A stretch of DNA of 53,166 bases, filler included, from an uncultured virus (IMG/VR IMGVR_UViG_2124908030_000004) (Duplodnaviria; Heunggongvirae; Uroviricota; Caudoviricetes; Thumleimavirales; Hafunaviridae). It is 9 parts of one record of this genome, joined end to end, with 100 filler letters (N's around TTAATTAATTAA, not from the genome) between each part and the next. Parts side by side here need not be neighbours in the genome. Positions count along the whole stretch, not along the records: positions 1 to 3,839 come from IMGVR_UViG_2124908030_000004; positions 3,940 to 10,609 come from IMGVR_UViG_2124908030_000004; positions 10,710 to 15,604 come from IMGVR_UViG_2124908030_000004; positions 15,705 to 19,002 come from IMGVR_UViG_2124908030_000004; positions 19,103 to 30,984 come from IMGVR_UViG_2124908030_000004; positions 31,085 to 37,575 come from IMGVR_UViG_2124908030_000004; positions 37,676 to 47,002 come from IMGVR_UViG_2124908030_000004; positions 47,103 to 51,986 come from IMGVR_UViG_2124908030_000004; 1 more part is not named here. The stretch is one strand, 5' to 3'. Position 1 is the first letter of the stretch. Each line of letters begins with the position of its first letter. Made by a program: the position numbers and the translations under genes. Positions 456 to 52,547 of this stretch are shown here, one piece after another. The notes below the pieces were generated by a model, which made no database searches, was not told where the DNA came from, and saw only the letters and a program-made list of their open reading frames with translations.

Positions 456-742
456 GTGACCGCTACTTTGCGTTCGGACGAAATCACTACGATGGGTGTG
501 ACTGTCCGGCTGTTGAAGCGGGGCGAAGCAGTGAAGAAATGGAGGAAATGGGGGCACTGTTTGACATGATTAGCAGTTACGACGACATTGCTCAAACCCG
601 ATATTCACCTCGGAAGGGAACCGTTGTAGAAAAGAAAGCGAAACGCAACTGGTTCCAAGCCATTGAGGAGCTTCGGGACCGACAGAAGCACGACGCTGCT
701 GATGTTGGTGTTGAAATTGCGGAAACTCTGGGGTGGGAGTGA
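452..742 (+). CDS. small CxCPA-motif protein, paralog 2
   Basis: FAFGRNHYDGCDCPAVEAG...EIAETLGW; ATGA overlap with the previous gene. Confidence 0.8.
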   Translation: MSDRYFAFGRNHYDGCDCPAVEAGRSSEEMEEMGALFDMISSYDDIAQTRYSPRKGTVVEKKAKRNWFQAIEELRDRQKHDAADVGVEIAETLGWE

Positions 743-1068
743 TGCCGTATCCGCCCGGAGTCTCTGCCGGCTCTCCCCGAGCGCCGTGGAATGCTCCTGA
801 GCCAGACGAGTGCGAGCTATGTGGTGGTGTCTACACCGAGGGTGGGCACGAAGCAGTAGAGGTTGAAGATATCTGGTTCTGTATTGAGTGCGGCACTGAG
901 TTTCAGGCTCACGAACCAGAGGAGTGCCCGGAGTGTGCGTTCCCTGAGTTTGGGAATCCGCCGTGTCCGAACGGTGGGGTTGGACACGCAGAGCGGCAGG
1001 AGAACAAGCGAATGGCTGAGGGCGACCGAAAGTACGACGCGATGAAAGAGCGAGAGATGTTCGATTGA
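742..1068 (+). CDS. CxxC zinc-finger protein
   Basis: CELC, CIEC, CPEC motifs; ATG at 742 overlaps the upstream stop. Confidence 0.7.
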   Translation: MPYPPGVSAGSPRAPWNAPEPDECELCGGVYTEGGHEAVEVEDIWFCIECGTEFQAHEPEECPECAFPEFGNPPCPNGGVGHAERQENKRMAEGDRKYDAMKEREMFD

Positions 1069-1173
1069 TGCGGCGCTGCATCTATTGTGGAAAGCCCGCA
1101 GAGAAAGCGACTGGCCGCTGTGGAAACAACCCGAGCGGAAACCGATACGGATACCACGACGTTCAAGAAGTCA

Positions 1174-1488
1174 ATGACTGAAGACCTACCATACTCCAAC
1201 CGACTTGATGCACAGAACCCGCAGGATTACGTCAAAGCGTACAACAAGGCTGACGGAGTTGTTGAGGAATCAACTGTCCGTGGCAAGTTGGAAGCGATAG
1301 ACGATAGCCGGTGGTACAACACGCTCGATCACGCTCACACTCATATTGCCAACACCGACCTCGGTGGAATGGAGACAGTCAGTGAGCTGTATAGCGATGA
1401 TTTCCTTGAGTGGGTCGGCGTTTTCGGACTCTGTGAGGATATCACGACGCTTGAAGACCTGACCGGCATTTCCCCGAAGCACGACTAA
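1174..1488 (+). CDS. hypothetical protein
   Basis: Acidic ORF; ATG at 1174 chosen within ORF 1087..1488. Confidence 0.55.
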   Translation: MTEDLPYSNRLDAQNPQDYVKAYNKADGVVEESTVRGKLEAIDDSRWYNTLDHAHTHIANTDLGGMETVSELYSDDFLEWVGVFGLCEDITTLEDLTGISPKHD

Positions 1489-1970
1489 TTGTGTTTTTCA
1501 AACTAACGCAGCACTGGGTAGAAGCATCTATGCTGTTCTCCTCTCGGATGATGTTCGGTGATGAAACGACCGCACATCTGCTTGAGGAAAACTCTGAGGA
1601 TTACAGTATGCAAGAGCGGCGAGACTTCGCGGTTAGACACTCCAATCAAATGAGTTCGTNNNNNNNNNNNNNNNNNNNNCGTCACGGCGAAGCATCACGG
1701 ATTGCCGTTCAACGAGTGGAATTTGATGAGCAAGGTTTGATGGACGGGTTGCAGCACAGTTGGATTGCTCGCGAGAAATTGAAAGAGTGGCTCTGGAAGA
1801 ATGAAGTGTCCTACTTGATTGAGTTCAAAGAAAATGGCTACTAAGATGATGGTCGATGATGGTACCGGGACTCTCAAACGATATGTCAGTGCTAATTCTG
1901 GTGGCCCATATTGGCCGGCAGAAATACGAAGGGAGCCATTCGGTGTAACCGAGTGGGTTGACAAACGGCT

Positions 1971-2016: not shown

Positions 2017-2436
2017 TTTTGGAGAGCAACAATGACAGCAATAGCCCCCGGCAACGACGAGCCGTATGACCCCGACCGAAACGACGAACGAGCCTACGAC
2101 GACAGGGCGGGAGACTTCATTGAGGAGGCGTTAGAGCGAGGCGAATTCCTTGTTGACGAAGCACTGAGCAGTACCAACACGGATTACGGTGGCCGTGACC
2201 CTGCCGAGGAGTCTCTGGTATGACAACAGAAGAAGAAGCCGAACAGGAGAGAGAAGACAGCGTGCTGTTCGACATTCGGAGCGACGAAGCATGAAACAGA
2301 TTGAGTTAGAAGATGATGTTGGTAACGTTTACATTGAAAACGACGACGACCTGCTCGTGGCTATTGACAGAGACGCAGAGGAGATTTACGTTTATGAACC
2401 AGACAGATACCAGCCAGTTTACGTGGGTGACTTGCA

Positions 2437-2670: not shown

Positions 2671-3064
2671 CAACGCAAGAACACGTTCTGATTGACTTGA
2701 TTGGGAAAGCGTGGGACGAGACTGACATTCCTCAATCCAAGTTTGCGGAACTGCTGCGAAACGAGGCTGACCTGTACGAGAACGCGCCGGAATTAGCCAG
2801 CGACCCCAGCCGACCATACTAATGACAACTATCGCGAAAACCCTTGGCCTGACCCTCACCGACGCACCGAGTCAGAAGAACATTGACTACATCCTGATTG
2901 ATACCTACGGGAATGAATTTCCGATATCAGACAGGGCAGAGATGAACGACATTGAGGTGCTGTTCTCAGAGGTGAAGGACAAATGAACGTTCTCGAGCTG
3001 GCAATGAAGAAAGTGCTGGACGAGTCGGACGACGGAATCATTCTGGAAGTTCTGGACGAGGAAG

Positions 3065-4392: not shown

Positions 4393-4726
4393 TGTTTGAT
4401 GAATGTATTTGCATTGAGGAGAGGCGAGAGCCGAAGAAAGTCATAGAGCGAATTCCGTTTGCGGCCCCGGACGAGACGACCATCAAACGAATAGAGTGTA
4501 TGACTTGCGGTGAGGAGATCAAAGACCTATCATGACAGAAGAAGGCAACACGCTACTGACGCTGCATAACGACTCAATTGAAGAACTAACCGGCGGCCTC
4601 ACAATGCTCGCTCAGATGCTTAGAGTGATGCGGAAATACGAGAAGGCTGAGAAGATGGAGACAATTCGAGACACGATAGACGCACAGTATTACTCATAGC
4701 TAAAGCGGTAGACACCAACCCCCTCA

Positions 4727-4831
4727 ATGAATCAAAACCAGAGTCCCAACTGTTGCGATAACCCACGAATCGTTTTCCAATCAGGCTGTCAGTCATGTCG
4801 GAATTGCGGTTGGAGTGCGTGTCATGTCTGA
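4727..4831 (+). CDS. 34-aa zinc-ribbon microprotein
   Basis: MNQNQSPNCCDNPRIVFQSGCQSCRNCGWSACHV*. Confidence 0.5.
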   Translation: MNQNQSPNCCDNPRIVFQSGCQSCRNCGWSACHV

Positions 4832-5254: not shown

Positions 5255-6496
5255 ATGACTAACTATGAACGGCTTATTCTTGAGGCATCAAAGGTGTGGT
5301 GCCCGGACCTTAGCCCGGAGTATCCACGCCGGGTAAGCAATGCTAACACCTTTCAGACAGAGGTGACCAGCCGGTATCGGTTGGTATCAAGTCTCATTGA
5401 CGCGCAGCAGAATGGCAAAGATGGGTTCGTTTCAACCTACTCTTTCCCTCGGGGTCACACCGACGCTGGTGATAACGTTCCTGAGATAAACACCATATTC
5501 GTTGACTTCGATATTCCGGCTGATTCAGAGTATCGGCAATCTGACCACTCCCTCAATGCGTGGAAACGCTCTATGAGTGACTTGCTGATTCGCGTTCAGA
5601 TGGTCGCCAGCACGCTGCTGGAATCAGGCAAAGCAAAGCACTGGCGGGCCTCTCTCAGCGGTCACAAGGGCGTTCACCTGTTCTTCGACTTCGAACCCGT
5701 ACACGAAGCCAACGGCTCGTACAAGCAGTTCAAGACGGGCCTTAAGCAGTACGGCGACAAGATGATTGAGCAGATTGACGAGTTCGCTGGTGGTATCAAC
5801 ATTCAGCCGTGGGTTGACGTTGACTCGTCTGACCTTGCCCGGCTGGTCCGGCACCCCAACACTCGGCATCCCGGTGCCAAGCACCGCGACGAGTCATGGT
5901 GTGTTCCGGTCACCATCCAAGAGCTTGCAGATATGACTGCCGACGACTATCTCAAGCTCACCAACGGCCCGCGAGAGATACCTGACTCTTGCCAACGCAA
6001 TCCGTCAGCAGAAGGCCGTGACGAGATTGGACTCAAGATTCGCAATGTCAATGGTGGCGGTTCCGGCTCTCGGGACTACACCGAGACAAAGATGCGTGAC
6101 CCAAAGGCGTTGCAAGACTACCGAGAGCGGTCTAACGACGATATTAACGTCGGTACCATCCCGCTGCTGGTGCAGAACAAGCCGTGTATCATGGCGTTCG
6201 CTGAGCGTGACGATAGCTACAAGCACGGTGCTGCCAGCCGAACAATGGAGATCAACGTCATGAAAGAGTTGATTCAGAAAGAGGTGCCCGTCGATACTAT
6301 TGTCAACTTCTTCCGTGGCTTTGACGGCTTCAACGAGAGCGATACCCGCACTCTTGTTGAAGACCTGATTGCACGGTATGACGGCCCGTTCACCTGTAAA
6401 AACATCTGGAACGATGGTGGTGAATTCTGTGTTGCAATGAACGACGACTACGACCAGTCGTGTCGTATCTACGACAAAGAACAGATGACTTCATGA
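5255..6496 (+). CDS. archaeo-eukaryotic primase (PriS-like) with C-terminal PriL-like domain
   Basis: FVDFD, SGHKGVH and DLARLVRHP AEP motifs; C-terminal PC...TC...C cysteines. Confidence 0.8.
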   Translation: MTNYERLILEASKVWCPDLSPEYPRRVSNANTFQTEVTSRYRLVSSLIDAQQNGKDGFVSTYSFPRGHTDAGDNVPEINTIFVDFDIPADSEYRQSDHSLNAWKRSMSDLLIRVQMVASTLLESGKAKHWRASLSGHKGVHLFFDFEPVHEANGSYKQFKTGLKQYGDKMIEQIDEFAGGINIQPWVDVDSSDLARLVRHPNTRHPGAKHRDESWCVPVTIQELADMTADDYLKLTNGPREIPDSCQRNPSAEGRDEIGLKIRNVNGGGSGSRDYTETKMRDPKALQDYRERSNDDINVGTIPLLVQNKPCIMAFAERDDSYKHGAASRTMEINVMKELIQKEVPVDTIVNFFRGFDGFNESDTRTLVEDLIARYDGPFTCKNIWNDGGEFCVAMNDDYDQSCRIYDKEQMTS

Positions 6497-6584: not shown

Positions 6585-7550
6585 ATGGATTACTCACGAC
6601 TCACAAAAGAAGAAGCGACGGACATTCTTGTAAAGCACGACGAAGCAACGTGGACTGACCGCCTTTGGAAAGAGGTGATTGAGCCAGCCAAAGTTCTCTA
6701 CTGGTTGGATGCGTTCGGTGACCAGAGCCTCGCTATCAACTGTCAGGGCTTGCCCAAAACCCTACCCGACGACGTGGTGAAAGGCGTCAATGAGTTCGAT
6801 GTTCTGGGTGAATGGGACGGACGGCACCAAGTCCATGAGTGTCCGACTTGCAGCAGGGAACTCTACGAGTTCGGGCTTGGCAACTGCGAAATCATTGACG
6901 AGTATGGTGACCATCACCAGATGATTGGTTTCCTTTCAGATGAATCGGGCCAGATGTACGATGCACTGGGTGAACATAGGTTCATGTGTCAAGGCTGTAA
7001 GGACCACACTCGGGAGACGTTCGGACGGCACGCAAGTTACGATGGAGTAGCTATCTTCTACGGGACAACGGAGAACAAGCACTACAAATTCCGAGAGACA
7101 GCCGGCATTATCTCTCGGGATTCGTGGGGTTGCTACTCCGGTGATTGCGTTGACCTCCCGGTTCACAATGAGCAGACCAGCGACCACTACGACGTGGCTG
7201 AGATCGAACGAGCATTTGCTCAGGGTGGCCGTGAGAAGATGGAATTCATTGAGGAGGAGTTGAATTTCGTCCAAATCAAGTACGACCAACTTGACGTTCG
7301 ACGGACTGGAGTTGGCAAGGCAGAGTGGGACGTGAAAGAGATTCTTCAAGAGTGGTCCGAAGCACTCTACGATGAAGACTGTGAGAATTGCCACCCCGAC
7401 CTTGACTTCACATACATCATTGAGAACGGCAGAAAAATCTACTGTCCTGAGCAGTGGCAAGACAAACTCGAGTATGAGTTGAAGTTCCGCTTCTATCAGA
7501 AAGACGGACAGCCCGACGTGGCTCAGAGTCTGACTGACCACACGCTCTAA
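6585..7550 (+). CDS. hypothetical protein with CxxC motifs
   Basis: 321-aa acidic ORF; CPTC, CQGC, CENC. Confidence 0.7.
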   Translation: MDYSRLTKEEATDILVKHDEATWTDRLWKEVIEPAKVLYWLDAFGDQSLAINCQGLPKTLPDDVVKGVNEFDVLGEWDGRHQVHECPTCSRELYEFGLGNCEIIDEYGDHHQMIGFLSDESGQMYDALGEHRFMCQGCKDHTRETFGRHASYDGVAIFYGTTENKHYKFRETAGIISRDSWGCYSGDCVDLPVHNEQTSDHYDVAEIERAFAQGGREKMEFIEEELNFVQIKYDQLDVRRTGVGKAEWDVKEILQEWSEALYDEDCENCHPDLDFTYIIENGRKIYCPEQWQDKLEYELKFRFYQKDGQPDVAQSLTDHTL

Positions 7551-7623: not shown

Positions 7624-7633
7624 AACCCCCTCA

Positions 7634-7888
7634 ATGCACGTTAAATCAACAGTCTATCCCGTAGCTGAAGCGCGGGAGACAGACGACGAACAGTGGTATG
7701 AATACACGGTTGCTTTGGTTTCTGACAGCAGGCGGGTAATTGACTCGTGGAACAGTCTCTACGAGACGTACAATAGCTGCCCCAAGCAGCGGTTATCAAA
7801 AGAAAAAGCGAAGCAGGCGGTTGCAGAGATTCGGAGCGACGTAGAACAGGGCGATGCAAGCACTTGGTTCGACACCAGCGACGACTAA
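7634..7888 (+). CDS. hypothetical protein
   Basis: ORF starting just after the ribozyme. Confidence 0.6.
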   Translation: MHVKSTVYPVAEARETDDEQWYEYTVALVSDSRRVIDSWNSLYETYNSCPKQRLSKEKAKQAVAEIRSDVEQGDASTWFDTSDD

Positions 7889-10886: not shown

Positions 10887-11356
10887 TATGACCGCCTCTC
10901 GTCAACCACACCCATTCCAGCCAAGACGACCTTGTTAGAAAATCCGAGGTCTTCTTGCATTGAGGTGAACAGTGGGTCGTTATCATTACTGGTTGGATAG
11001 AAGCGGTAATCATCAACCTCGTCATTACAAACGAGGATGCAAACAGAGAATGCAATCAAATCTGTCCGCTTGCCAAGGCTTCTGTGGTCAAGACCGTCGA
11101 ACAATCGCCGGGCTTCCTTCTTCTGATAATCAGTCAAGCAGAGGTGCCCACAGAGTGCGTCAAGAATGGCGAGATTATCTTGTCGGTAGCGGACCTCTTT
11201 GTTTTCCTCGCGGCGATCTTTCCAAGTCCCCCTGTGGTAAAATCGGAGCTGCTTGAATCGTTCTGGGTTCGATGCTTCGTCGGGATTGAAGAACGTCGCG
11301 TTCTCAGTATTCGGTGTAATTACTTCAGATGGCTCTTTTTCTTGTGGAGATTCCAT
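10886..11356 (-). CDS. TFB/TFIIB cyclin-repeat-like protein
   Basis: LAILDALCGHLCLTDYQKKEARRLF...GKRTDLIAFSVC resembles the first cyclin fold of TFB. Confidence 0.55.
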   Translation of the reverse strand: MESPQEKEPSEVITPNTENATFFNPDEASNPERFKQLRFYHRGTWKDRREENKEVRYRQDNLAILDALCGHLCLTDYQKKEARRLFDGLDHRSLGKRTDLIAFSVCILVCNDEVDDYRFYPTSNDNDPLFTSMQEDLGFSNKVVLAGMGVVDERRS

Positions 11357-11483
11357 AGAAAATCAATTCTCTTAGATAGAAAGGTACCGCTTAACCCCCT
11401 CAATGAATCTTATCTCAATAGATTATAATATTAAGATAATATACTAACATTCATTGAGGAGTTTGACCGTTCTCAATTCCTTC

Positions 11484-11528
11484 CTACTCTATTACACAAC
11501 GTGTAATAACTTAAAACTACCGATTTAA
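11484..11528 (-). promoter_or_regulatory. conserved viral promoter, class B (palindromic)
   Basis: Minus strand CGGTAG-TTTTAAG-TTATTACACGTTGTGTAATAGAGTAG; near-identical at 29389 and 33662. Confidence 0.8.
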
Positions 11529-11592
11529 TTCCTTGACCCTTATGAGTACCACCACATCAATCTTAACAACGGGCGGCCCGAAGGTGAACAGA

Positions 11593-12081: not shown

Positions 12082-12618
12082 TTCTTGCCGCGCTCGATCT
12101 GCAATCTCATTCTCGCCGTCATTCTCAAGCCATTGGATGAACTGCTGAACTTTCTCAATAGGCACAGATTCTTGTCCCGACTGAATGCGGCGCTTGGTAG
12201 ACGGCATGAGAGCGTTCTCCTCAACCACCTCAATGACGTTCATATCTTCATCTACTTTTGCGACAGGGCAGTCTTCAATATCAATATCATCAATCGTATC
12301 AGAAGAATGCACACCCTTGCCTCGCTTTTGACCGAGATGAATTTTGACACCTTGGTATCCTCGGAAGGCTTGTCCACAGTAAGGACACAATCGGGCAGTG
12401 GTATCTACTGACCGGGACTCAGGATAATCAAGTTGTACGTTCTTGGTTCCAACTTCTTCCAAGTTGTCAAGGTCTAATTTCTCAGGAACATCTCCGTGCG
12501 GCCCGTGACCACCACCAGACGACTGACGAATGTGCAAATGCATACCACGAGATAGACCCTCATGCTCGCAACCATCGACCGGACAGCGGACCACTCGTTC
12601 TTCGTTGCTGGACGGCAT
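12070..12618 (-). CDS. C2H2-type zinc-finger protein
   Basis: CPVDGC...HLHI and CPYC...VKIHLG. Confidence 0.7.
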   Translation of the reverse strand: MPSSNEERVVRCPVDGCEHEGLSRGMHLHIRQSSGGGHGPHGDVPEKLDLDNLEEVGTKNVQLDYPESRSVDTTARLCPYCGQAFRGYQGVKIHLGQKRGKGVHSSDTIDDIDIEDCPVAKVDEDMNVIEVVEENALMPSTKRRIQSGQESVPIEKVQQFIQWLENDGENEIADRARQELLA

Positions 12619-12983: not shown

Positions 12984-13244
12984 ATGACTGTAACCATCTA
13001 CGAGGACGATCAGCGAACGTTCGAAACGCACGACCGAGAGGGATACAAGTACATGGACAAAGAGCGTGGCAGTATCTTTTATTTTAACGCTATTAATATT
13101 ACTGACGACGGGTACCTTGAGTTCCGTCGCCTCCGTTCATCTTCAGGTTTTCTTGCTGGTGTAATTCACAAACTGCATGAGCTTCCCCGTTCCCTCCTCA
13201 ATGAATTTGAGCGCATTGAGCGAGGTGATGACGGTAGTAACTGA
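12984..13244 (+). CDS. hypothetical protein
   Basis: ORF downstream of a class A promoter. Confidence 0.5.
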   Translation: MTVTIYEDDQRTFETHDREGYKYMDKERGSIFYFNAINITDDGYLEFRRLRSSSGFLAGVIHKLHELPRSLLNEFERIERGDDGSN

Positions 13245-33542: not shown

Positions 33543-33661
33543 AGTAATCAAATTAGAGAGATAAAATACATTGAGGAGGTTTAGAACGTTTCCAAATCCC
33601 TCAATGAAGATTATCTCAGTATTAAAAAGACCGCAAAGGGTTGTTCGTTCTCAACTCCTCC

Positions 33662-33706
33662 CTACTCTATTACACAACGTGTAATAACTTAAAGATACCG
33701 ATTTAA
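33662..33706 (-). promoter_or_regulatory. conserved viral promoter, class B (palindromic)
   Basis: Same motif as 11484 and 29389. Confidence 0.8.
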
Positions 33707-33709
33707 CTC

Positions 33710-37675: not shown

Positions 37676-38765
37676 TGAGTCGGCCAATGAACGGCTGCTC
37701 GTTCGTTCGAACAGTCGCCAGAACCGTGTCAATGACCATCCGCGAGAAGCCGAAGCGGATGTTCGACTCCTCACTGTTGCTGTCAGAGACAGTGTTTATG
37801 TCGTCTGCAATCCGAGCGCCAGCCGCCTCCTGCGCCAGCGGGACAACCCGCTCGTCAATCAGCGACCCACGCTCTGCAAGGTCCAGCTTCTCGCTGAGCC
37901 CCTTCTGCGTAGCAAGCCGCTGGTTGATCGGCGTAGTCGAAATACCGATGCTCGCACGGAGTCCCATGTAAGAGCCGAGCGTACTTTCACCATCCTCGTT
38001 TCGGCTGGGATAAATGGACTGAACGCGAGAGTCATCATAGCGGCTGGTGTGGCTCAGAGGCTCAAGGTACGGAGCAGCGCCGACGAAGGTACTTGCAAAG
38101 TTGTACTCGTCGGCCATGTTACCGACCGTAAGCTGGGAATAGTCACACGCCTCATCGTCTTCACTCAGCGGGACAACGAAGTCAACTACCTCCCCTGCAT
38201 CTTCCTCAATGGAGTCAATAGCAGAGCTGAAGTCATACACCGTGTAGACAACTTCATCGTTCGAATTCCCGACCGACGTTCCGGAATCAACCTGAAACTC
38301 TCGCGTGGCGGGGTTAACGTAGACTTCGCCAGACCCAACAGAAGCCTGAGCGGGGTCGTCAAGCGTAATCACCGTGTCCATCGTTGTGCCGCCAAAGGTG
38401 AACGTAATATCCGAAGCATCTTCGCTCACAACACCGCTCGTAAGCGTGCCGGCATTCGAACTGAGAGTAGAGATATCCTCAGTAATTGACATGGACGAAG
38501 GTGCTACAGCATAGACCGGGTATGCACCTTCATTGAGTGCGTCATTGATAGCCACCGCCAGCGGGCTACCAGCACCAAACATCCTCCGGGCGGTCGGGCC
38601 GCTCGTAATCTGGTACACGTCGCCCGCATTTGCGTTACCAGAAGAAAGGTCAGCCTGTCCGACCAATGCACCGTCAGAAGGAGCGCCCCCACTGACAGAA
38701 ACAGCATCCTCGCTTGTAACATTCGAAACAACACCGGGTTCAATCCTATTGCCGTATTCAGTCAT
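37676..38765 (-). CDS. contractile tail sheath protein (partial)
   Basis: PGV N-terminus, ARRMFGAGSPL, C-terminal FIGR. Confidence 0.85.
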
Positions 38766-38771: not shown

Positions 38772-39278
38772 TCAATTATAGCTTATGTCCTTCTGAATCT
38801 CAGCGATAACATCAGTAACCGCTTCCTCAGATTCGAAGAACGTCTCAAGAACAATACTCTGGTTAATTTCCGTCTCGGTCGGCTCAAAATACTGGTATGA
38901 GACAGGACCAGAATCGCCAACCTTCACTTCGTGAACGTCCTGATGTAGACGCTCAGTTGGCCGCCGCTCAATGCTTGTCAACGCACTAAGTAGCGCCGAG
39001 TGATACTCATACGCCTCTACTTCATCCGCAGCCCGAACTTGCAGGTCTACGCGAAGGGCGTAGTAATAGCGGAATATCTGCTTGTCTTGCACATTGTCAA
39101 CGTCATAAACCGAACCAGAGTAGTTCGAATTATGGTGGTTGTGTTTTACGACAGAAACATTACTCAGCAGTACCGCAGGAACAGGGCGTGATTCTTCAAT
39201 TCCTGACGTGTGAACAGGGGGCGGTATCCGCCCATTGAGGTCACTAATCAGGGTTGAAACTGCTTCTTTAGGGAACAT
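38772..39278 (-). CDS. tail terminator/completion protein
   Basis: Position immediately upstream of the sheath gene. Confidence 0.6.
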   Translation of the reverse strand: MFPKEAVSTLISDLNGRIPPPVHTSGIEESRPVPAVLLSNVSVVKHNHHNSNYSGSVYDVDNVQDKQIFRYYYALRVDLQVRAADEVEAYEYHSALLSALTSIERRPTERLHQDVHEVKVGDSGPVSYQYFEPTETEINQSIVLETFFESEEAVTDVIAEIQKDISYN

Positions 39279-39731: not shown

Positions 39732-42700
39732 ACGTCGTACCCAAGTTCTTCAAGAATATCAGCTACTTGGTCGTCCGGTTCGCCCACCTCAAGCCAACCT
39801 TCAATCAGATATGGGAACTTGTTGTCAATCATTACAATCCTGCTGCGGCTGACATTATTTGCATTGTTGGCATCGTCGGGCCGCCCTCGCATTATCTCAG
39901 AGAGCGTTGTCCACAATTCGTTGGGAGCGCGAATCATGTACGGAGCTGTCGGATAGTCTATTTCATGATTAGAAACAGACCCAGTTCTCTGAGCGCGACG
40001 AGTTGCTTCAAGAATCACTTCCATCCACCCGACGTTTATTGCCTCCATTGCACGCTCCTCCGGTGTGTCGGATTCTAAGCTAATCTCAGGCTTTCCGCCA
40101 CCAGCGTTGATCTCATTGACGGCGTAAGAATTAATTTCGGGACGAGTATCACTGAAGTCGTATATTTCTCCCCGATTATCTAATAGAACTTCAAACTCGT
40201 CATTCGTATCTAAGTCTCGGAAAGATACTTTGACATTGTAATCATCGCCGTCAGTGAAGTCTTGGCTTACTTGCCTACGGACATATTTTGCTGTCATAGA
40301 ACCAAGTTCGGGATGGTTCATTTTGACAATATCTCCTTCACCAACTTCCGCACTCGCACNNNNNNNNNNNNNNNNNNNNATGTTCGTCAGCGTCGTCTGC
40401 AAAGTCCATATAGTATGTTCCGTTTCCAGCCTCACCATGCCACCCGTTAGCTGTTTCATCGGGGTCGTCCGGTACTTTTCCAATCGCACTCACTTTTCGG
40501 AACGTCTCCTTCAGCTTTTCTTTGTCTTTAGTAGAGTCAGCAACACGCTCTTTCAGAATATTCCGAATCTGTGTTGCTCTGTTAGAGTTAATTGCTACTC
40601 CGCCACCAGAAGTGAGATCGGTTGCGTCGTTAATCTCATCAATTTGGTCTTTGACTCGATTTACTTTGGCGGATTCTGGAAGTGTGCTGAATTCCCGAGC
40701 GCCAACAATTAAGTAATCATCTTCAATTCCTTGCGCTATGGGGTCGTGAATATCGTTCTTATCTATGTAAGCAGTCGTTTCAGTCCCACCGTAGCTTGGA
40801 CTTTTGATTGTGGCGTCAACGAAAATCTCTTTCTTGAAGTTGAATAGTTCAACCTCCTGCCCAGCGTACAAGTCAGTGGCCGGGGCTGTGAACAATCCGG
40901 GTTCGTAGGTTTGCCACCCTTCGGGGTACGTCCGAGAGTATCCGTCAAACTCGAGAGTTGTGGTGTTTTCAGTGATATCAGCAGCCCACGTTCGCCACTC
41001 TCGCTCGTCTTCAGCAAGCCCTCGGTCAATATATTCTTGTACGAACCCATTGACGCGCTCTTTGGCTTCGTCAGAATCTACTTTAACATCGTCTTTCCCC
41101 ATCCGACGAACGCCCGTTGAAAGAACGTCCATCGTTTCATCACTAAGTGCTGAAAAGTTGCCTTGTTCGAAGTTAGCAAGCGCAACTTCATTGAGGGATT
41201 TTGTAGAGTCCCGAGAGTTGAACTCGAGATCGCTCCTGTCTATCCGGTACTCGTCAGACTCGTCAGCACCTCTCACTAAGACCTGTCCGTATCTGTAGCG
41301 ATAGGTGTCAACAATACCGTCAGAAGCGAGGAGTATTTCATCCTCAATATCCTTGTCGGGACTGTGCCAGAACGACCGGAGTGTATTGTTTTCCGGTATT
41401 CTTTCTGTCCTGTAATTGATTACCGCATCCCCCTCAATGCTCCATGATTCAGCAGTTGGGTCTTCCCAGACACTCTTGACAAGTCCCGCCTCACGGTCAT
41501 TTTTCGGAGCGTAATGAAGCTGGACAGTGCCGTCGCCATTGCCATAGTGCTGCTCGAGGTATCTATCGGTGATTTCTTTCAGCGATTTCAGAACCGGCTC
41601 GACTCCCGGTTGACTTGGGGTACCAGAACGCCCCTCACCAATCGGGGTGCCGTCAAGGTCGAACGTTATCTTAAGGTCACGAGAAAACTGAGCAGCCTCA
41701 GAGTTTCCACCGACATTTCCTCCTTTCCATGCATCTATGAGAGTGAATACGGTACCAGCGTCGTCACCGTACTTCTCGCGGAAATTGTTCTGTAGCTCGC
41801 GTGTATCTTTGAGGTGAGGCTCAGTAGATGTAATCCGTGTGAGGTCAACTTCATTGAGGAGAGTAGAGAGGCCGAGGTTCTTTTTGCTACTTTCTTCAAC
41901 AGCGATTACTTCTTGATCGGTGCTGGCTGTATATTCCCTCAGTTCGCGTGGTTGGAATCTGGTTTGATAACCGTCACTCGTCCGCCTGAGATACACCTCA
42001 TCTTGGTCTACCAGTGTAACCTCATATTCCCCGACAATGCCATCTTTGGAGCGGAAGTAGAAGGTGTCGTCAACTCGGTCTGACCAATCATCAAGTCCGA
42101 AGTAATTGTCTTCCGGAAAATCAGTCGTGTATTTGTCCGGAAGGTCGTCTTCTACAAAGTAGTCAAAGTCGTCGTCTTGGTCAAAACCTTGACGTAATCC
42201 AAGAACGGTTTCATCATCTTCAGGGATGTAGTATTCAACTTCCCCGGTCCACGGTATCGGGTCTTCAGCTTCGTATTCTCCGTTTGGCTTTCGAGCGAAA
42301 TAGAACCATGAATTAGGACCAACATCAGGCCGAATGTGTCCATTCGTACCATTCCATCCGGTGTAGAAACTGTGGTCTTCAATCCCTTGTTTATATCCAC
42401 CGACAAATTTTCCCCGGATAATAGCGCCTTTAGGAATCTGTTTTATTTTGTTTATATCAGACCCCACAAAGCCGGGTTCACCAACTGGAAGCGGGTCGGG
42501 TGGGCTGGGGTCGTTCCCACCACCATCCTCGTCGTAATCAAGCGACCAACCACCCATTTTCCGCTTGACCCACGGGAGTAGAGCTTGAACCGGCGGGCCA
42601 CCATCTGCATACGCAGCGGCGGCAACGCCTTCGTCAACAGCACCAGCATGATCAGAGCTGTTGTAGACCTTACGGCCTTTTTCGAATCTACTATCGCGGG

Positions 42701-43711: not shown

Positions 43712-44695
43712 AGAGGAAGTTAACCGAGTGCCAGCGAAGTGAACCGCGCCGAGGGGGTTAACCATCGCCGCACCGAGGTCCATCGTGCCGGTGCCCTGAA
43801 TGAACTGGCCGGGGTCAAGGGCCGGGCCGCCGGTCGGAGCCGTGACCTGCATCGGACGCTCGATGTACTCCTTGACAGGCTTGTCGTCCACGTTGATCAC
43901 GTAGAACTCGTCGCCCGTCAGGTACGGCGTCGTCAGAACGCTAACCCCACGCGGGTTAACGGTCATGTCACGGATATCCTCACTCCGAAGGCCCGTCGCC
44001 ATCGGAATGTGGAAGTCGTGACCCTCAAGCTCGTTACGGAGCCGGCGCTTGAAGTCCAGCGAACCCAGCAGGGCCTTCTGACCGTTCCAGCCGTGGTGGT
44101 ACAGCTCGTCCGCCGCCTCCTCAATGTGGTCCAGCACCGAGTGGGCGCTGGTGTCACCGAACAGCTCCGAGGTGTCCGCGAAGTCGTGGCTGTGGTCCCG
44201 GTTGAACGTGTACGCACCGTGGTCGGGAACGTCGTACCACAGGTCTTCGGTACCATCCGAGATACCCGAGAAGATAACGTCGTGGATTAGCTGCTCCTCA
44301 GTCTCCTTGCCCGCGCGGATAACCGACTGAATACGGTCCATAACGCGGTCGGAGGTGCTTTTCTCGATGAACTTCTGAGTCAGACCCAGAGCCTTGCCGT
44401 ACTCCTCAGTACGAATGGTCATCTGGTAGTAGTCCTCCTCCTCGTGGGTCATCGTGCCGGGGAATTCACCCTCGGAAAGCTGTTCCCACGTCTCTGCGTC
44501 CGCTTCGATATCCTGAAGGAACGTCTGCTGTCCGACCTGTTCTGCAAACAGGTTAACGAACGGCTTGTCAGCATCGTTGAAGTAGTCAACGAGGTTCTGA
44601 GTCTGCTCCGCAATGTCGGTCAGCGGAACGTCGTCCTTCGTGTGAATCTCGCGCGTGTTCGGTCGGGTCGGGTTAAGATTGTCAGGGTGTGCCAT
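43710..44695 (-). CDS. major capsid protein (HK97 fold; probable 1-nt indel near 3' end)
   Basis: About 330 aa, strong codon bias, EGE...EYGKALGLT pattern, position in the head module. Confidence 0.85.
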
Positions 44696-47102: not shown

Positions 47103-47794
47103 CGGGCGTAGTCGAATTCCATATCCCGAAGCATATTCGCCTGCTCTCGGATTGGCTCTACAAATGAGCGCCCGAAGTCGTCAACCGGGTCTTTGGTAAA
47201 GTACAACTCAGCAACCTCATGCGGGTCGTACTGAGTCGCTTCTTGATCGTCGGGGCCACCACCGCCCGGTGGCTCAAGGGCGTATTTCTCAACGAATCCA
47301 TATCGGTCAGTCTTGATATGCATTCGCTCAGTCGGGAGTAGCCGTGGTCGAAACTGTTCATCCTCCACGACAAGTTCCATGAAAGCGTGACCGTCCTGTA
47401 CGGCGTATTCAACCCAGTTGTTGAACACCCGCCCGAAGTTAGACGTAGCGAACAGTTTCCGGAGTTGGGGAATGTTCTGTTGCTCCTCAAGTTCCGCTTC
47501 ATTGAGGGTGGCGGACGCTCCAGTTTCTCCTCCGCCCTCGTTGACACCAGCAATGTGTCGGGGAGAAATGTTGTGGCCGTCACCACAGATGTAGTCAATG
47601 ATAGTGAATATCGCTTCGTGAACGTGGGGGTCAGTCCGCGCTACGTCACGATTCGCAAGAATCTCGTCAGATGGTGCCTCAGTAGACCGTTCACCATCAA
47701 AGCGATTTCCGGCCTGTTCCTCTTTGATTAGCCCCTTGGGGGAATCGGCGGAGAATTCACCGCCATCGTTGTTATCTATGAATTGGTCAGCCAT
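47103..47794 (-). CDS. portal protein (partial)
   Basis: GHAFMELV...PRLLP...EVAEL...FGRS; follows terminase. Confidence 0.85.
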
Positions 47795-47796
47795 TA

Positions 47797-49197
47797 CTAA
47801 ATATTACTTCGCCGCCGGTCTGTCTTCTGCCGTGAATATCGAGAACCGTTTCCACGGTCCCGCGAGTGCTTCAATGTGTAGTCGTTCGATGAAGAACTTC
47901 CAGAGATTTTCAGGCCCGCCCACCCGTCGTCGTCTTTCAACTTGTCTGTTGAAGTATAACCCGTCGCGTCGGCGTTCTCTTTATTCTGCAACTCCTTCGT
48001 TTTCTGCCCGCTGAAATTAGGCGGGAACGCCGCCATGATGGTTGCAATAGCCAAGTCGTCTTTCCCATCCGGGGCCTGTTTCTTGCCGGAGAACCGTGGC
48101 TTGGTATCCTCATACGTCTGCTCTTTGACTATCGCTCCGAGCTGATCTCGCAGAAGTTCGTCGTGGGGAAGCGAGATTAGGTCATTATGAAGGGCGTAGT
48201 TCATGTCGCCCATCATTTCCTCTACTGAGTCCTTGTCAGAGAAGTTGAACCCAGTGTAACCTCGCCCCACCTTTCGTCGTATGTCGTCCTGAAAACCCTG
48301 CCCTACGCCCGTCATATCCATCACAACAGAGTCCACGCCCATCGCACCGTGAATCTGTGAGATTCGCTCAGCGACCGCTGCTGGGTTCTGACGGGAAGCG
48401 GGAGTAATGCCCGACCGGGCGAGAACTTCGTCAGTCAGAATCTCATGGTACCGACACTTTCGCGTCGGGCCGTCGTGTTCAAACACACTGATTGCGGTGT
48501 CGTCGGAACTGAATCCAATGTCAACACCCATCGCCAGTGGATTGCTCGTGTGGTATTGCTTGAGTCCGTAGTCGTACCCATCAGTGGTTGACCGCCCCAT
48601 CGCCTCCTCAATGCAGTCCATCGAGAAGAAGCGATACTCGTCAGATACCGGCTGGCACAGGTACTCTTGTGCAAATCCCTGCGGGTCTTGTGCCCGCTCT
48701 GTCTCTACCGTAGAGATGTTCATGTCCGGTCNNNNNNNNNNNNNNNNNNNNTAGGCTTTTAGCCGTGAGCCGTTGCTGAAAACAAGTTCGTCCTTATTCT
48801 CGGTCGGAAGGTCAAACTCAACCTTCGCGTCCTGAATAAGTTTCTTAGCGTCAGCAATTCTCGCTTTCGACTGACTCTTAGTTTTTGAGACAATCGGGTA
48901 GAAGGTATCCTCCTTGAACAGCGCCTCAAGAAGAATACAGACAACGAAGGTAAACGACACACCAATTCGCCGCCCCTTGTAGACGTTAATAATCTCCTCG
49001 TCGCCGTAAAAATACGCATGGACGAGGCGGGGTTGGTACGGACGGAAGAACGTCAAATCTTCCATCTCACCCGTCTCCATATTCCGAGCCTGAAAAATAT
49101 CCTCAGCGACGAGATCAGGACGGCCCTCCCATCGTTCCAGAAGGGCGTCGGTAGACTCGTCAGTATCCTCGGATACCTTTTCGGCTAAATCGTGCAT
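47797..49197 (-). CDS. terL: terminase large subunit (internal gap)
   Basis: PYQ, KGRRIGVS Walker A, FAQEYLC, GVDIG...D, DDLAIA nuclease motifs. Confidence 0.92.
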   Translation of the reverse strand: MHDLAEKVSEDTDESTDALLERWEGRPDLVAEDIFQARNMETGEMEDLTFFRPYQPRLVHAYFYGDEEIINVYKGRRIGVSFTFVVCILLEALFKEDTFYPIVSKTKSQSKARIADAKKLIQDAKVEFDLPTENKDELVFSNGSRLKAXXXXXXXXPDMNISTVETERAQDPQGFAQEYLCQPVSDEYRFFSMDCIEEAMGRSTTDGYDYGLKQYHTSNPLAMGVDIGFSSDDTAISVFEHDGPTRKCRYHEILTDEVLARSGITPASRQNPAAVAERISQIHGAMGVDSVVMDMTGVGQGFQDDIRRKVGRGYTGFNFSDKDSVEEMMGDMNYALHNDLISLPHDELLRDQLGAIVKEQTYEDTKPRFSGKKQAPDGKDDLAIATIMAAFPPNFSGQKTKELQNKENADATGYTSTDKLKDDDGWAGLKISGSSSSNDYTLKHSRDRGNGSRYSRQKTDRRRSNI

Positions 49198-49212
49198 TGA
49201 AAGAAGAAACCG

Positions 49213-49536
49213 CTATGAAAGGTCGTGTTTGAATTCGATAGTCAGATAACCGTCGTTCGGGAACGTGTGAAGCGTGCTATCCGCATACTCTACTTCCCAT
49301 TCCGCGAGAAAGTAACCGGACTCGTCAACTTCATCGGCGCTAAATTCATATCGGACTTTACCATTTTCCGCGTCAACAATGGTCGCCATTCCACCTGCTT
49401 TGAGTTCACTATCAGCATCCTGCTTCATGTAGAACGAAACGGAGGACGCTTGCGTGAGGTCAGCGGGAGAATCGTTCTCTTTGAGAACGCCCGTCATTGG
49501 AGTCGTGTCGTTTCGCTTTCGTTCAATTTCAGTCAT
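49213..49536 (-). CDS. BppU-like Ig-fold structural protein
   Basis: KRNDT...DLT...IVDAENGKVRYEF...GYFLAEWEV...TFP. Confidence 0.7.
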   Translation of the reverse strand: MTEIERKRNDTTPMTGVLKENDSPADLTQASSVSFYMKQDADSELKAGGMATIVDAENGKVRYEFSADEVDESGYFLAEWEVEYADSTLHTFPNDGYLTIEFKHDLS

Positions 49537-51986
49537 AGTGGCTCAAAGTCAGTGGTAACGTCGTCAATGAATATTGTCAGTCGCGTGTCAGAGATAATCG
49601 AGTCTGTCTTCTGTTCTTCAATGGTTGCCGCGTACTCCTCAGCATTCATATCCACGTCCGTTTGGACGTAGGGCAGAACGCCGGGAGTCCGAATCAGCGG
49701 CCCCTCACCCTCAAGAACACTCGAGAGTAGTTTGAGAGGCAAACCACCGAAAGAGCGAGCTGTCCCAATGCCCTGATAGGTTTCCGACTCTATCAACTGA
49801 GTCTCACCAGCACTCAGCGAAGCCGAGGTTGCTGGGGCTTTCAGCGTCCACGTAATAGCGGACGTGAATCCTCGAGCAGATACCTTGGTAAAGGCTGGTG
49901 ATTCTACTCCATTGAGCGAAGGAGTGGTCGTGGAACCACCGACCGCCTCTGAGAACACCGTGGAAGAAATCACAAACGTATTGACAGTCTGTGGCTCTAC
50001 CTCGGGATTCGCAGCCGTCAGCGGGTCAATGAACTTTCCGAGTGAAACCATTGAAGACGGCTCTGCATTCGCCGTCGTTGCCGTCTCCGGCGTTGATACA
50101 CTCGGAGTGCTCAGCATTGAGTCGGTCGCGGATACACTTACACTCGCCGTCATTGCATCTGCTCCGAACCCGGAAGTTGTCGCAACTGTTTCACTCTCAA
50201 GTGAAGTCGCCGTTGCGTTAACCGAACCGGGAGTCGTCGGGGAAACCGTCGCCGTCACGCCCCCACCAATCGAAGCGGAGGCTCCCGACGACGGTGCGGG
50301 GGTTGTCGAAGCAACCACCGAACCACCGTCAGTTGCAAATGCCTGTCCGTCGCCCACACCAGAAGTGGCAGCCGTTGCGGTCGGCGGTGAGACACTAACC
50401 GAATCGGTCGTTGAATCATCGCTGGTCTGTGAACTTGAGGAGCTTACCACAGAGCCGCCCGCCCCCGTTGCCACGCCGGTCGCCTGTCGGCTTGTGACCG
50501 CCGCTTGGGGATTCGTACATCCCACCGTAATCTCCGTTCTAACGGGAACCTCATTCGTCTGAACGGATGCCTTCTCCCCACCAATCGAATCAGCCTGTGG
50601 GGAAGCTTCTACTGTGGTTGAAGCTGCATTGACCGGGGCGGGCTGGTCAACTGAAGTAGATATGACCGCCCCATCACTCGGGGTGCCAGAAGCAACCTGA
50701 GAAATACTCAGAACATCAGAAGTCGTGTAAGCCGAAGCATCCTGAGTAACCTCCTCAATGGATTCTAACGCTCCGTTCTTACCTACCGCCGTCACGCTCG
50801 CTTGCTTCGTGTTGGTCGAACAGTTAACGGTCTGGCCGCTCAGTAGCTTTGCTGTAACATCCGGAGTTATGACAGAGCTACCAACAGTCGGGTTCGCAAC
50901 CCCCGGCTTTGCTTCCGAGGTTCCCGAACCAAAGACTGTGGTATCTGCGGACGCGATTGTCCCTCCAGAACCAGTTGCAGCCTGTGAATTCGAAGCGCGG
51001 GTCGGGAACGCAACCATCCCGTCCGAGATTGTCACCGCGCCGGCAGCCGCCTCGGGACTGATCGAGAGTGACTGTGCCGAAGCACCGGCCACAGTACCAG
51101 CGGACGTGCTGGTAGTCGCCGTCGCCGTTTCCATCCCCATGCTCGAGGTCGTCGGGACTCCAACCACCTCAATGAGTGAGGAACCTTCAATTGTATCTAA
51201 GTTCGCTCCTGCGGCTGCGGAAACTGAGGTAGTTGTCGCATACTCAGAACTCAGTTTCGGAATTCCGACTGATGAACTAACAGAGCCGATAGTAGTCGTG
51301 TCAGTCGTTCCAAAGGAATCAACCCCCGTTGCTGTTCGGAAGGGAATGAGATTTTCAGGAGGGATAATCTCAGTCGGCTCGCTGCCAACTGTATCTCCCG
51401 GCTTGTCCCAACCGACGCGGATGTGATCGCCGCCACTACCCTCGGAGTAAATTCCTCGGATGTAGTATGGCTTGCCCCCCTCAAGAGTCACCGGAGAGGA
51501 TTGCTGCCCAGAGTATTTCGTCCACTCATTCGGTCCCGCATAATTGGACAGACTCGCAATGAGATTGCTGTTAGAAGGCAACTCGTCAGACGAGAGGTGT
51601 AATTCGCCCTTATTATCAGTCGTCAGCCAGAACGTGTAATCTCCATCCTTCGGTGGGATAAGAAACGCCTCAATTTCAGACTGATAATATTCTCCATGAC
51701 CCCCACCGTCAAAGCCTGAGAGTTGATAGACAGAATCCGGGTCAGTATTAAACGTTGGCCTATCAAAACTGTTACCACTCCCATTTTGCCAGACTTTTTG
51801 AACGATATTCTGGCTACGCCCATTCAAAGTCGTTTCAGAGGGTGCAAGAGTCGATACCTGCGCTCCGACTCCACCGACTGAAGAACCACTCATCGAGTTA
51901 ACAGTCGCCCCACCACCCACCGTTTGAGCAGTCGCGTTCTTAGAAGTAGTAGATACAACTCAGAAGATGCAACTGCCGTGAGCGAC
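49533..51986 (-). CDS. Ser/Thr/Ala-rich fibre/adhesin with PA14 domain (partial)
   Basis: AFLIPPKDGDYTFWLTTDN...VTLEGGKPYYI...EGSGGDHIRVGW = PA14 pattern. Confidence 0.8.
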
Positions 51987-52547
51987 NNNNNNNNNNNNNN
52001 NNNNNNNNNNNNNNNNNNNNNNNNNNNNNNTTAATTAATTAANNNNNNNNNNNNNNNNNNNNNNNNNNNNNNNNNNNNNNNNNNNNGAACTGACTGGGCT
52101 GGACCCCGAGATACACGACTTTTATCTCAACAACGTTTGCGATTTAACACACATTGACGAACTTGGTCACCTCGAGCGCCATTTTAGATTTTCATTCGCG
52201 TGGGGCGGCTACACGATCACGCTCTCCAATAAGGGCGACATTCTCGTCTTTGGCCCGCAGGAGATACACAGCTCCGACCCATTTTCCCTGCTACCCTCCT
52301 CAATGCAGTCCGATTTACGAAAAAATACCAGAGAGTGTCCATTCTGCCGGTCGGCGCGAACCGACGACTGATCGGCAAGCAAAATCGGAAAATCGGAGTT
52401 GAAAATGAGATATTTTGCAATGGAGTAACTAAATATCGCGCACACGCAATATACTAAATGTTCCAACTGGCGGGACGTACTGCCGGTGTGTCGTACACAG
52501 TGGCCTGCTGTGTCGTGGACTGCTGTATGCGCCCTCGCACGGGGTCA

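Follow-up and report, generated by a model that had tools for sequence, protein, structure and literature searches.

A non-palindromic octamer is enriched to about one copy per kilobase in an uncultured haloarchaeal virus genome and has a one-letter variant in the HF1/HF2 group

The non-palindromic octamer CCTCAATG/CATTGAGG occurs 51 times, 27 times on the + strand and 24 on the - strand, in IMGVR_UViG_2124908030_000004, an uncultured virus genome from IMG/VR that we analysed as a single window of 53,166 nucleotides. For this window, the case that the enrichment acts at the level of DNA, beyond any coding bias, is strong. The window consists of nine contig pieces joined artificially, in an order and orientation that are not biological, and, judging from its genes, it represents a Hafunaviridae-like haloarchaeal myovirus with HF1/HF2-like gene content.

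Exact matching reproduced the copies and coordinates listed in the first-pass annotation of this window, together with the two coding contexts and the copies between genes that it had described. In 100 dinucleotide-preserving shuffles the octamer was expected 1.82 +/- 1.37 times (largest count 6), and none of the shuffles reached 51. It is the commonest 8-mer of the window; the next unrelated words have at most 22 copies, aside from TTAATTAA, which is frequent only through the word used to link the pieces and is an artefact of joining. We modelled 83 genes as open reading frames (ORFs) scored by codon usage. By this model 38 of the 51 copies lie inside ORFs, while 13 fall between genes or overlap a start codon. 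The in-gene copies are read as C-ATT-GAG-G (Ile-Glu, 19 copies), C-CTC-AAT-G (Leu-Asn, 16) or CC-TCA-ATG (Ser-Met, 3), and one register, used on both strands, is common to 35 of the 38. Remaining frames hit a stop codon (CAT TGA GG, or CCT CAA TGA when A follows the octamer), and other frames need codons or residues that are rare in haloarchaea.

The first-pass annotation had proposed a selected site acting on DNA, an idea to be abandoned if the enrichment vanished once amino-acid sequence and codon-pair usage were preserved. The enrichment persists under codon, codon-pair and Markov nulls alike. Shuffling synonymous codons within genes gave 6.6 +/- 2.4 copies (maximum 14 in 300 shuffles) and permuting codons gave 3.3 +/- 1.7, against 38 observed. 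With the observed codon pairs taken as given, 9.0 copies were expected against 35 in-gene copies; both the flanking C and the flanking G were present at 16 of 25 CTC-AAT pairs (3.4 expected, P = 7e-9) and at 19 of 53 ATT-GAG pairs (5.6 expected, P = 9e-7). Enrichment holds in both orientations, with 19 sense copies against 1.3 expected and 19 antisense copies against 5.0. It also holds outside genes, where the 5,831 nt of non-coding DNA contain 12 complete copies against 0.19-0.41 expected under Markov models of orders 1-3. Octamer density is higher in non-coding DNA (2.1/kb) than in genes (0.8/kb).

In conserved genes, the Asn encoded at octamer sites often replaces an Asp or Glu of relatives (LALNAA in the window versus LALDAA, ISLNEG versus LRLEVG, NLLNEV versus RLLEEA). 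Thus, the DNA word has altered protein sequence at these positions. All nine contig pieces carry the octamer, at 0.6-1.4/kb, and its density is 0.85/kb in genes with HF2 homologues and 0.73/kb in those without. Gaps between copies reach 5.2 kb and there are four close pairs, a pattern compatible with random placement, and we therefore reject regular spacing. A miniature mobile repeat, similar to miniature inverted-repeat transposable elements or repetitive extragenic palindromic elements, is also rejected, as only 8-16 nt are common to the copies; moreover, conserved genes contain copies in frame and show no insertions there compared with their orthologues, which counts against origin from a mobile element.

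Conserved flanks extend the octamer, which is the invariant core, into an asymmetric site of ~14-24 bp that resembles (T)AACCY-CCTCAATG-AAGTTGAAC. The trinucleotide AAC stands at position -5 in 14 of 49 sites (P = 1e-13) and at +14 in 11 of 49 (P = 8e-10). AACCN-CCTCAATG accounts for 12 of the 51 copies. The extended form TAA(A)CCY-CCTCAATG, which the first-pass annotation had noticed in several copies, is present in 7 of the 51, five of them outside modelled ORFs. The 7-mer CTCAATG has 71 copies in the window, and GTCAATG is enriched too. An upstream ACC or C-rich flank, with KTGA ~9 nt downstream of the 7-mer, is found both in the window and in its IMG/VR relative G002. This layout is weaker in the cultured viruses HF2 and VOLN27B; HF2 sites, described below, have AAC at -5 in 13 of 78 cases (P = 1e-9).

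Four close pairs of copies are inverted, and two of them stand in 5' leaders beside homologues of the HF2 class I promoter repeat. The pairs and these two homologues are as follows, with hairpin z-scores taken from mononucleotide shuffles:

11398..11459, inverted pair (11398 on +, 11452 on -), spacer 46 nt and 85% AT, hairpin with a 13-bp stem, z -5.1
11468..11535 (approximate), - strand, class I promoter-repeat homologue (HF2 type), immediately preceding the pair at 11398-11459 in the direction of transcription
25074..25109, inverted pair (25074 on -, 25102 on +), spacer 20 nt, hairpin z -3.1 on the + strand
28339..28391, two copies in inverted orientation (28339 on -, 28384 on +) within the ribonucleotide reductase (RNR) gene, no significant fold, z -0.5
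33569..33606, inverted pair (33569 on -, 33599 on +), spacer 22 nt, hairpin z -6.9
33648..33712 (approximate), - strand, second class I promoter-repeat homologue, lying upstream of the pair at 33569-33606

The first-pass annotation had reported three inverted pairs in AT-rich spacers. All three pairs exist (11398/11452, 25074/25102 and 33569/33599), but only the 11398/11452 spacer is truly AT-rich; the spacers of the other two are 60-64% AT, with AT-rich outer flanks. The pair at 11398..11459 lies in a leader, with the class I promoter-repeat homologue on one side and ORF 10886-11356 on the other, and the pair at 33569..33606 lies in a leader between such a homologue and the tail-chaperone gene 33033-33551. 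Hairpins of the leader pairs, on the transcribed strand, reach beyond the octamer. The pair at 25074..25109 is placed between convergent genes, adjoining the integrase gene; between it and the end of that gene, a GC-rich hairpin followed by a T run (25135-25185) could be a terminator, or an attP/tRNA-like remnant such as HF2 has at the matching place.

The class I homologues in the window (AATCGGTATCTTTAAGTTATTACACGTTGTGTAATAGAGTAGG...) include a third one (approximately 29380-29450, - strand), which precedes the RNR gene and has a leader that carries no octamer. HF2 leaders after the repeats IR1c and IR5c carry C(C)TCGATGTAGTGAATC. The intergenic repeats of HF2 have promoter activity, and its class I and class II repeats are 58 and 29 bp long, AT-rich, strictly intergenic and few, according to the part of PMC8707807 consulted. 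As a class, they are further marked by TATA and BRE elements. These repeats belong to the same virus group, and window octamer pairs lie immediately downstream of two of their homologues, which are elements distinct from the pairs. However, the octamer is mostly found in genes and is absent from the HF2 repeat sequences, so we reject it as a component of them.

The same count in related haloviruses, which the first-pass annotation had proposed as a check, finds a one-letter variant, CCTCGATG/CATCGAGG, at the same density in the HF1/HF2 group. It is the top 8-mer in the three Haloferacalesvirus genomes ranked. Counts of this variant, or of its 7-mer CTCGATG, in individual viruses and in a host-like replicon are:

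HF2, 77.7 kb, 78 copies of CCTCGATG, strands 29 versus 49
VOLN27B, 76.9 kb, 74 copies of CCTCGATG
Hardygib1, 73.2 kb, 77 copies of CCTCGATG
HSTV-2 (Mincapvirus), 68.5 kb, 39 copies of CCTCGATG
HRTV-25 (Laminvirus, same family, GC content as in HF2), 61.9 kb, 5 copies of CCTCGATG
Haloferax mediterranei pHM500 (megaplasmid), 505 kb, 91 copies of CCTCGATG (0.18/kb)
Serpecor1, 74.2 kb, 154 copies of CTCGATG
HRTV-8, 74.5 kb, 155 copies of CTCGATG
HCTV-6, 71.7 kb, 107 copies of CTCGATG
HRTV-27, 56.6 kb, 31 copies of CTCGATG
HVTV-1, 102 kb, 86 copies of CTCGATG

The listed positions of CCTCGATG along the HF2 genome show no clear polarity. HF2 sites are kept at 32 of 38 aligned positions in Hardygib1 and at 42 of 50 (84%) in VOLN27B; same-frame windows 12-30 nt from HF2 sites are kept at 42%. 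In HRTV-25 (L006), four of the five CCTCGATG copies fall within ~0.9 kb (27208-28097) of the tail gene gp34, which hints that this gene was acquired from a word-bearing lineage. The family word is not enriched in the two host-like plasmids searched, pHM500 and Haloquadratum PL47.

Among the viruses and plasmids counted, the form with A (CTCAATG) is rare or absent beyond the lineage of the window. It has 32 copies in pHM500 (0.06/kb), 5 in the 47 kb of PL47 and 10 in Serpecor1, and none in HVTV-1 (102 kb, L015) or HCTV-6 (72 kb, L013). HF2 genes contain 2 copies against 9.5 expected under the codon null. CTCAATG may be an avoided word in HVTV-1, HCTV-6 and HF2. Among IMG/VR relatives of similar GC content, G002 uses mostly A (39 CTCAATG and 11 CTCGATG in 28.9 kb; 17 copies of the 8-mer in genes versus 1.8 under the codon null), L017 (11 G, 4 A) and L019 (14 G, 5 A) use mostly G, and both forms occur in contig G003 (23 A and 22 G in 19.7 kb). 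At six window sites the aligned sequence of relatives is the G-form: 5551, 19304, 24157 and 27587 (in HF2 or VOLN27B), and 44119 and 45914 (in L017, L019 or L021). For most window sites, neither HF2 nor VOLN27B has the G-form at the corresponding position. We reject the idea that the A-form is a relic left by CpG decay of the G-form, because CpG is undepleted in the window (observed/expected 1.11) and CTTGATG is not enriched (14 copies versus 71 of CTCAATG). A search of the viral contig collection with the extended 15-nt site gave 109 single matches in unrelated contigs and no contig with several; we therefore take these matches to be at about chance level. On sequence comparison, we conclude with moderate confidence that the octamer is the A-form of a family word, CTCRATG, of which CCTCGATG in the cultured HF1/HF2 group would be the G-form, because flanks are shared, copies occur in leaders of both, A and G exchange at aligned sites, and HRTV-25 provides a contrast within the family.

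Outside the close inverted pairs, the copies are distributed over the window as follows:

661..668, - strand, ORF 452-742, C-ATT-GAG-G (Ile-Glu)
2118..2125, - strand, ORF 1978-2223, Ile-Glu
2950..2957, - strand, ORF 2822-2986, Ile-Glu
4412..4419, - strand, intergenic, 19 nt past ORF 3952-4392
4722..4729, + strand, intergenic, AACCC extension
5551..5558, + strand, ORF 5255-6496, Leu-Asn; aligned position in HF2 CCTCGATG (Leu-Asp)
7247..7254, - strand, ORF 6585-7550, Ile-Glu
7629..7636, + strand, TAACCC extension, 2 nt after a hammerhead ribozyme, its ATG the start of ORF 7634-7888
10958..10965, - strand, ORF 10886-11356, CC-TCA-ATG (Ser-Met)
12228..12235, + strand, ORF 12070-12618 (- strand), Ile-Glu-Val-Val, AACCA extension
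13196..13203, + strand, ORF 12984-13244, Leu-Asn
15206..15213, + strand, ORF 14748-15656, Leu-Asn
17421..17428, + strand, ORF 17404-17679, TAACCT extension, Leu-Asn; Met/Leu-Glu in relatives
17547..17554, - strand, ORF 17404-17679, Ile-Glu
18090..18097, + strand, PD-(D/E)XK nuclease gene 17800-18654, Leu-Asn; Leu-Asp in HF2
18767..18774, + strand, N6_N4 DNA methylase fragment 18702-19001
19106..19113, - strand, at the start of a contig piece, upstream of the modelled start of the family B DNA polymerase (PolB) gene
19304..19311, + strand, PolB, Leu-Asn; aligned position in HF2 and VOLN27B CCTCGATG (Leu-Asp)
20540..20547, + strand, PolB, Leu-Asn
21149..21156, - strand, PolB, Ile-Glu
22588..22595, - strand, intergenic, CATTGAGGAGGCT immediately before the ThyX ATG (22601)
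23077..23084, + strand, ThyX, Leu-Asn; Leu-Asp/Glu in relatives
23833..23840, - strand, ORF 23714-23857, Ile-Glu
24157..24164, + strand, dCTP deaminase gene, Ser-Met; aligned position in VOLN27B CCTCGATG, synonymous TCA/TCG
25697..25704, + strand, integrase gene, Ile-Glu-Val-Val, AACCA extension
26057..26064, - strand, integrase gene, Leu-Asn
26797..26804, - strand, intergenic, TAACCT extension, 83 nt past the RNR stop codon
26998..27005, + strand, RNR, Ile-Glu
27587..27594, - strand, RNR, Ser-Met; aligned position in HF2 and VOLN27B CCTCGATG
34137..34144, - strand, ORF 33979-34554, Leu-Asn
34371..34378, + strand, ORF 33979-34554, Ile-Glu
38204..38211, + strand, tail sheath homologue 37620-38765, Ile-Glu
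39233..39240, - strand, ORF 38772-39278, Leu-Asn
41189..41196, - strand, ORF 40338-42899, Leu-Asn
41432..41439, + strand, ORF 40338-42899, Ile-Glu
41852..41859, - strand, ORF 40338-42899, Leu-Asn
44119..44126, + strand, major capsid gene; aligned position CCTCAATG in L016, CCTCGATG in L017 and L019, ACTCGATG in L021, L001 and L002
45914..45921, + strand, ORF 45666-46943; aligned position in L019 and L021 GCTCGATG
47500..47507, - strand, portal homologue 47051-47794, Leu-Asn
48606..48613, + strand, large terminase gene, Ile-Glu
50753..50760, + strand, ORF 49533-51920, TAACCT extension, Ile-Glu-Glu-Val
51167..51174, + strand, ORF 49533-51920, AACCA extension, Ile-Glu-Val-Val
52298..52305, + strand, intergenic

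The hammerhead next to the copy at 7629, which ends 2 nt before it, is a type II ribozyme at 7562-7626 on the + strand (Rfam RF02276, 42.3 bits versus a gathering score of 37). The records of HF2 and Hardygib1 annotate a hammerhead before the Rad3 helicase gene.

Our favoured explanation, which we hold tentatively and at somewhat less than an even chance, is that the octamers are dispersed docking sites for a sequence-specific DNA-binding protein encoded by the virus. We lean towards it because the site has a core with weaker flanks spanning about two helical turns, forms operator-like inverted pairs in leaders close to promoters and stands singly elsewhere, is restricted to the virus and occurs in lineage dialects. 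Selection on double-stranded DNA would keep the site at ~1/kb on both strands, and the viral protein and its sites would have changed together between lineages. Inverted pairs in the 5' leaders downstream of class I promoter repeats could act as operators, working either as protein-bound palindromes or as leader hairpins, and single sites within genes could give this protein points along the entire viral chromosome at which to mark or block it, in the manner of the dispersed repressor 'stoperators' of some mycobacteriophages. Within genes, sites would use the register of tolerable dipeptides (Ile-Glu, Leu-Asn) and sometimes force a change from Asp or Glu to Asn. The data show the enrichment, its action on DNA, the extended site, the position in leaders and the related word with A/G exchange at aligned sites; we infer that a protein binds these sites, that the virus encodes it and what its binding achieves. 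The protein may regulate or act as a roadblock, or it may organise or mark the chromosome.

Several results weigh against this interpretation. Pfam and PHROGs scans of the window ORFs gave no clear DNA-binding candidate, nor a candidate repressor. A winged-helix gene beside the HF2 integrase gene was considered as the reader and set aside, as the window has no counterpart at that place. Comparison of gene presence and absence identified only four small unannotated proteins that word-bearing genomes share and that HRTV-25 and HRTV-27 miss. Additionally, the 8-mer excess is modest in relatives once codon pairs are given, both in HF2 (13 versus 7.5 and 23 versus 12.6) and in VOLN27B (25 versus 8.8 and 18 versus 10.1), and the control pairs CTC-GAA and TTC-GAG show a similar excess in HF2. 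For the HF1 group, the excess is found mostly at the hexamer, that is, codon-pair, level (CTCGAT/ATCGAG 139 versus 64 expected), where CTCGAA/TTCGAG is also in excess (138 versus 71), CTCGAG is entirely absent and CTCGAC is depleted (19 versus 62). Because these gains coincide with the absence of CTCGAG and the depletion of CTCGAC, some of the family signal may come from compensation for avoided words. Control words of favoured codons are 53-90% conserved between HF2 and its relatives. Other lineages also have top words of their own, which reach z ~9: under the codon null, CCGATGAG in HSTV-2 (L005+L042; 33 versus 6.9), CCTCATCG in G004 (28 versus 6.2) and CTTCTCGA in G005 (32 versus 6.7), and CTCGAGAG is enriched in G002 (14 versus 2.1). 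Thus, such enrichment may partly be a general property of these genomes.

The comparison with stoperators cuts both ways. In Cluster A mycobacteriophages such as L5 and Bxb1, stoperators are dispersed asymmetric repressor sites. Like the octamer, they are virus-specific, are present as tens of short asymmetric copies over a viral genome of ~50-75 kb, have lineage-dependent consensus variants and promoter-adjacent copies, and occur in viruses that carry an integrase. However, known stoperators are intergenic and oriented with transcription. About three-quarters of the octamers lie in genes, with no preferred orientation relative to transcription (19:19), which is a further point against the docking-site explanation, and the host here is an archaeon with other transcription machinery.

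The first-pass annotation had suggested several functions for a selected DNA site; the site stands, but none of these functions could be shown. An unlikely, though respectable, alternative to docking sites is a 'self' signal similar to Chi or to the DNA uptake sequences (DUS) of Neisseria and uptake signal sequences (USS) of Pasteurellaceae, read by a recombination or nuclease machine of virus or host. Such a signal would protect or preferentially recombine the DNA that carries it and spread by recombination between co-infecting relatives. DUS and USS, which are features of competent bacteria, where an uptake receptor recognises them, share with the octamer a density of ~1/kb, equal orientations, particular permissive frames in genes, inverted pairs between genes, a core with weaker flanks and one-base 'dialects' between related lineages. 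Exchange of the two dialects at aligned positions, their coexistence in G003 and the even spread of sites over core and accessory genes agree with this, as do viral genes for a PD-(D/E)XK nuclease, an ERCC4-type nuclease, an exonuclease fragment and an HNH endonuclease. However, the same nuclease genes are present in HRTV-25 and HRTV-27, which lack the word, and the absence of enrichment in pHM500 and PL47 also differs from an uptake signal. Uptake specificity has no obvious counterpart in a tailed virus, and octamer pairs lie in 5' leaders, whereas DUS and USS pairs lie at gene ends. Chi (for example GCTGGTGG of E. coli) is likewise a 5-8-nt non-palindromic word that is over-represented, conserved and lineage-specific, but it is oriented with replication and read by RecBCD or AddAB. 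The orientation bias that defines Chi, and that a Chi-like signal as first suggested would bring, is absent here (27:24 between strands, 19:19 between sense and antisense); octamer density is several-fold higher, and no enzyme of the RecBCD/AddAB type is seen among the window proteins. We give a distinctly smaller chance to a by-product that needs no reader, arising from avoidance of words targeted by defence together with codon and dipeptide preferences, or from biased repair or gene conversion. The virus does avoid many words: the window has no CTAG, ATCGAT or GTCGAC, GATC is at 0.30 of expectation, many 6-mer palindromes are absent, and three non-palindromic words (CTCGAA, CTCGAC, ATCGAC) show a 4-8-fold depletion. 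The gain of CTCGAT and CTCGAA in HF2 that mirrors its loss of CTCGAG and CTCGAC, the small 8-mer excess over codon pairs there, and the top words of HSTV-2, G004 and G005 at similar z-scores all fit such an origin, as does a mild depletion of the transition neighbours of CTCAATG (39 versus 55 expected). Yet avoidance cannot explain 12 non-coding copies where 0.2-0.4 are expected, and it leaves the flank enrichment given the codon pair (16/25 and 19/53), the conserved AAC 5 nt upstream and 14 nt downstream, and the site-creating replacements of Asp or Glu by Asn unexplained. Top z-scores are 5-7 in motif-less genomes versus 10-12 here, and no single neighbour of the octamer is strongly depleted in the window, which speaks against a drive by patch repair. 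Such a process may nevertheless add to the family signal.

We regard as improbable that the octamer is a DNA modification target, for methylation or a bulkier adduct, that is frequent owing to a genome-wide role. The octamer has adenines on both strands, and the window contains two candidate genes for modification. One encodes a Mom-like protein (9088-9690, + strand; PHROGs phrog_1384, E = 3e-14; Pfam Mom, E = 8e-4, below the cut-off), sits in an octamer-free stretch of 3.3 kb and has a homologue in HHTV-1 only among haloviruses of the phage collection. The other is an N-terminal fragment of an N6_N4 methylase with a DPPF motif (18702-19001, + strand; Pfam E = 2e-5, below the curated cut-off) that is cut by the contig end and has no tblastn match in the phage collection. 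The window also tolerates CTCGAG (35 copies) and TTCGAA (35), both of which the HF1 group excludes, and therefore its lineage probably modifies something; G002 has 25 CTCGAG in its first 15 kb. However, neither gene has a homologue in the HF1 group, which bears the related word. Mom acts in the context S-A-S-N-Y, which the octamer does not fit, and methylase targets in viruses are usually depleted or neutral, not enriched 30-fold. A parallel with HIP1, a methylase-linked iterated word of cyanobacteria, and a tie to the large N6-methylase of the HF1 group are both rejected, because the word does not co-occur with a cognate methyltransferase: in Serpecor1 and HRTV-8 that gene is missing from its usual position, the only position considered, according to the portion of PMC7230728 consulted, yet both viruses have CTCGATG at full density. 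It is highly improbable that the octamers direct programmed single-strand nicking of packaged DNA, as found in phage T5 and certain other phages. Nick consensus words of the T5 type exist, the octamer is a short asymmetric word in dispersed copies, and one inverted pair adjoins an HNH endonuclease gene (11533-12081); but that gene is also present in HRTV-25, which lacks the word, and nicking would risk double-strand breaks because sites stand on both strands, with inverted sites sometimes 28-54 nt apart. The 'putative nick site' of HF2 (GTAAGT) is unrelated to the octamer. The remainder of the probability we leave to mechanisms not yet conceived.

Taken more broadly, the octamer may belong to a genome-wide 'self' word, CTCRATG with its conserved flanks, read by a viral protein and co-evolved with it into G-only, A-mostly and mixed dialects, a possibility that we consider doubtful. 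If true, it would be the archaeal-virus counterpart of Chi, DUS or stoperators, and a word strong enough to override protein sequence (Asp or Glu to Asn) in conserved genes. Following up each of those three kinds of word has revealed a specific machine that reads DNA. As the one-base variant is carried by the cultured viruses HF1, HF2, Hardygib1 and VOLN27B, whose hosts can be grown and in part manipulated, its reader and function are approachable. The octamer is also of practical use as a signature: it ties the nine contig pieces to one virus and may flag transferred genes, as with the HRTV-25 cluster near one tail gene.

As far as the literature searched shows, no genome-wide iterated word has been described for an archaeal virus. 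Neither CATCGAGG/CCTCGATG nor an over-represented octamer appears in the consulted main text of PMC7230728, PMC8707807 and PMC8651126, supplements aside, and the discussion in the consulted part of PMC7230728 states that non-palindromic motifs were left out of its analysis. We found no published description in the halovirus literature searched; the original HF1/HF2 genome papers could bear on this point.

Artificial concatenation of the window is evident from its linkers and N20/N50 gaps. Eight linkers of the form N44-TTAATTAATTAA-N44 lie at 3840-3939, 10610-10709, 15605-15704, 19003-19102, 30985-31084, 37576-37675, 47003-47102 and 51987-52086, and seven shorter runs of N (N20 or N50) at 1660, 5100, 6536, 17887, 34097, 40360 and 48732. 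Genes in the window include those for a family B DNA polymerase, a class II RNR, ThyX, dCTP deaminase, an integrase, baseplate J, capsid and large terminase. At the nucleotide level the window is ~70% identical to Haloferacalesvirus genomes, with ~62% identity for the capsid protein; GC content is 52% versus 56% in the cultured group. A PolB query matched no relatives in the viral contig collection, and the sole match of an RNR protein search of the genome contig collection was a Blastopirellula contig. The window also encodes a tRNA-Asn(GTT) at 22044-22118 (+ strand) and a second tRNA-like gene at 22238-22309 (+ strand; Rfam 42.6 bits), to which ARAGORN assigns a four-base anticodon (gtga).

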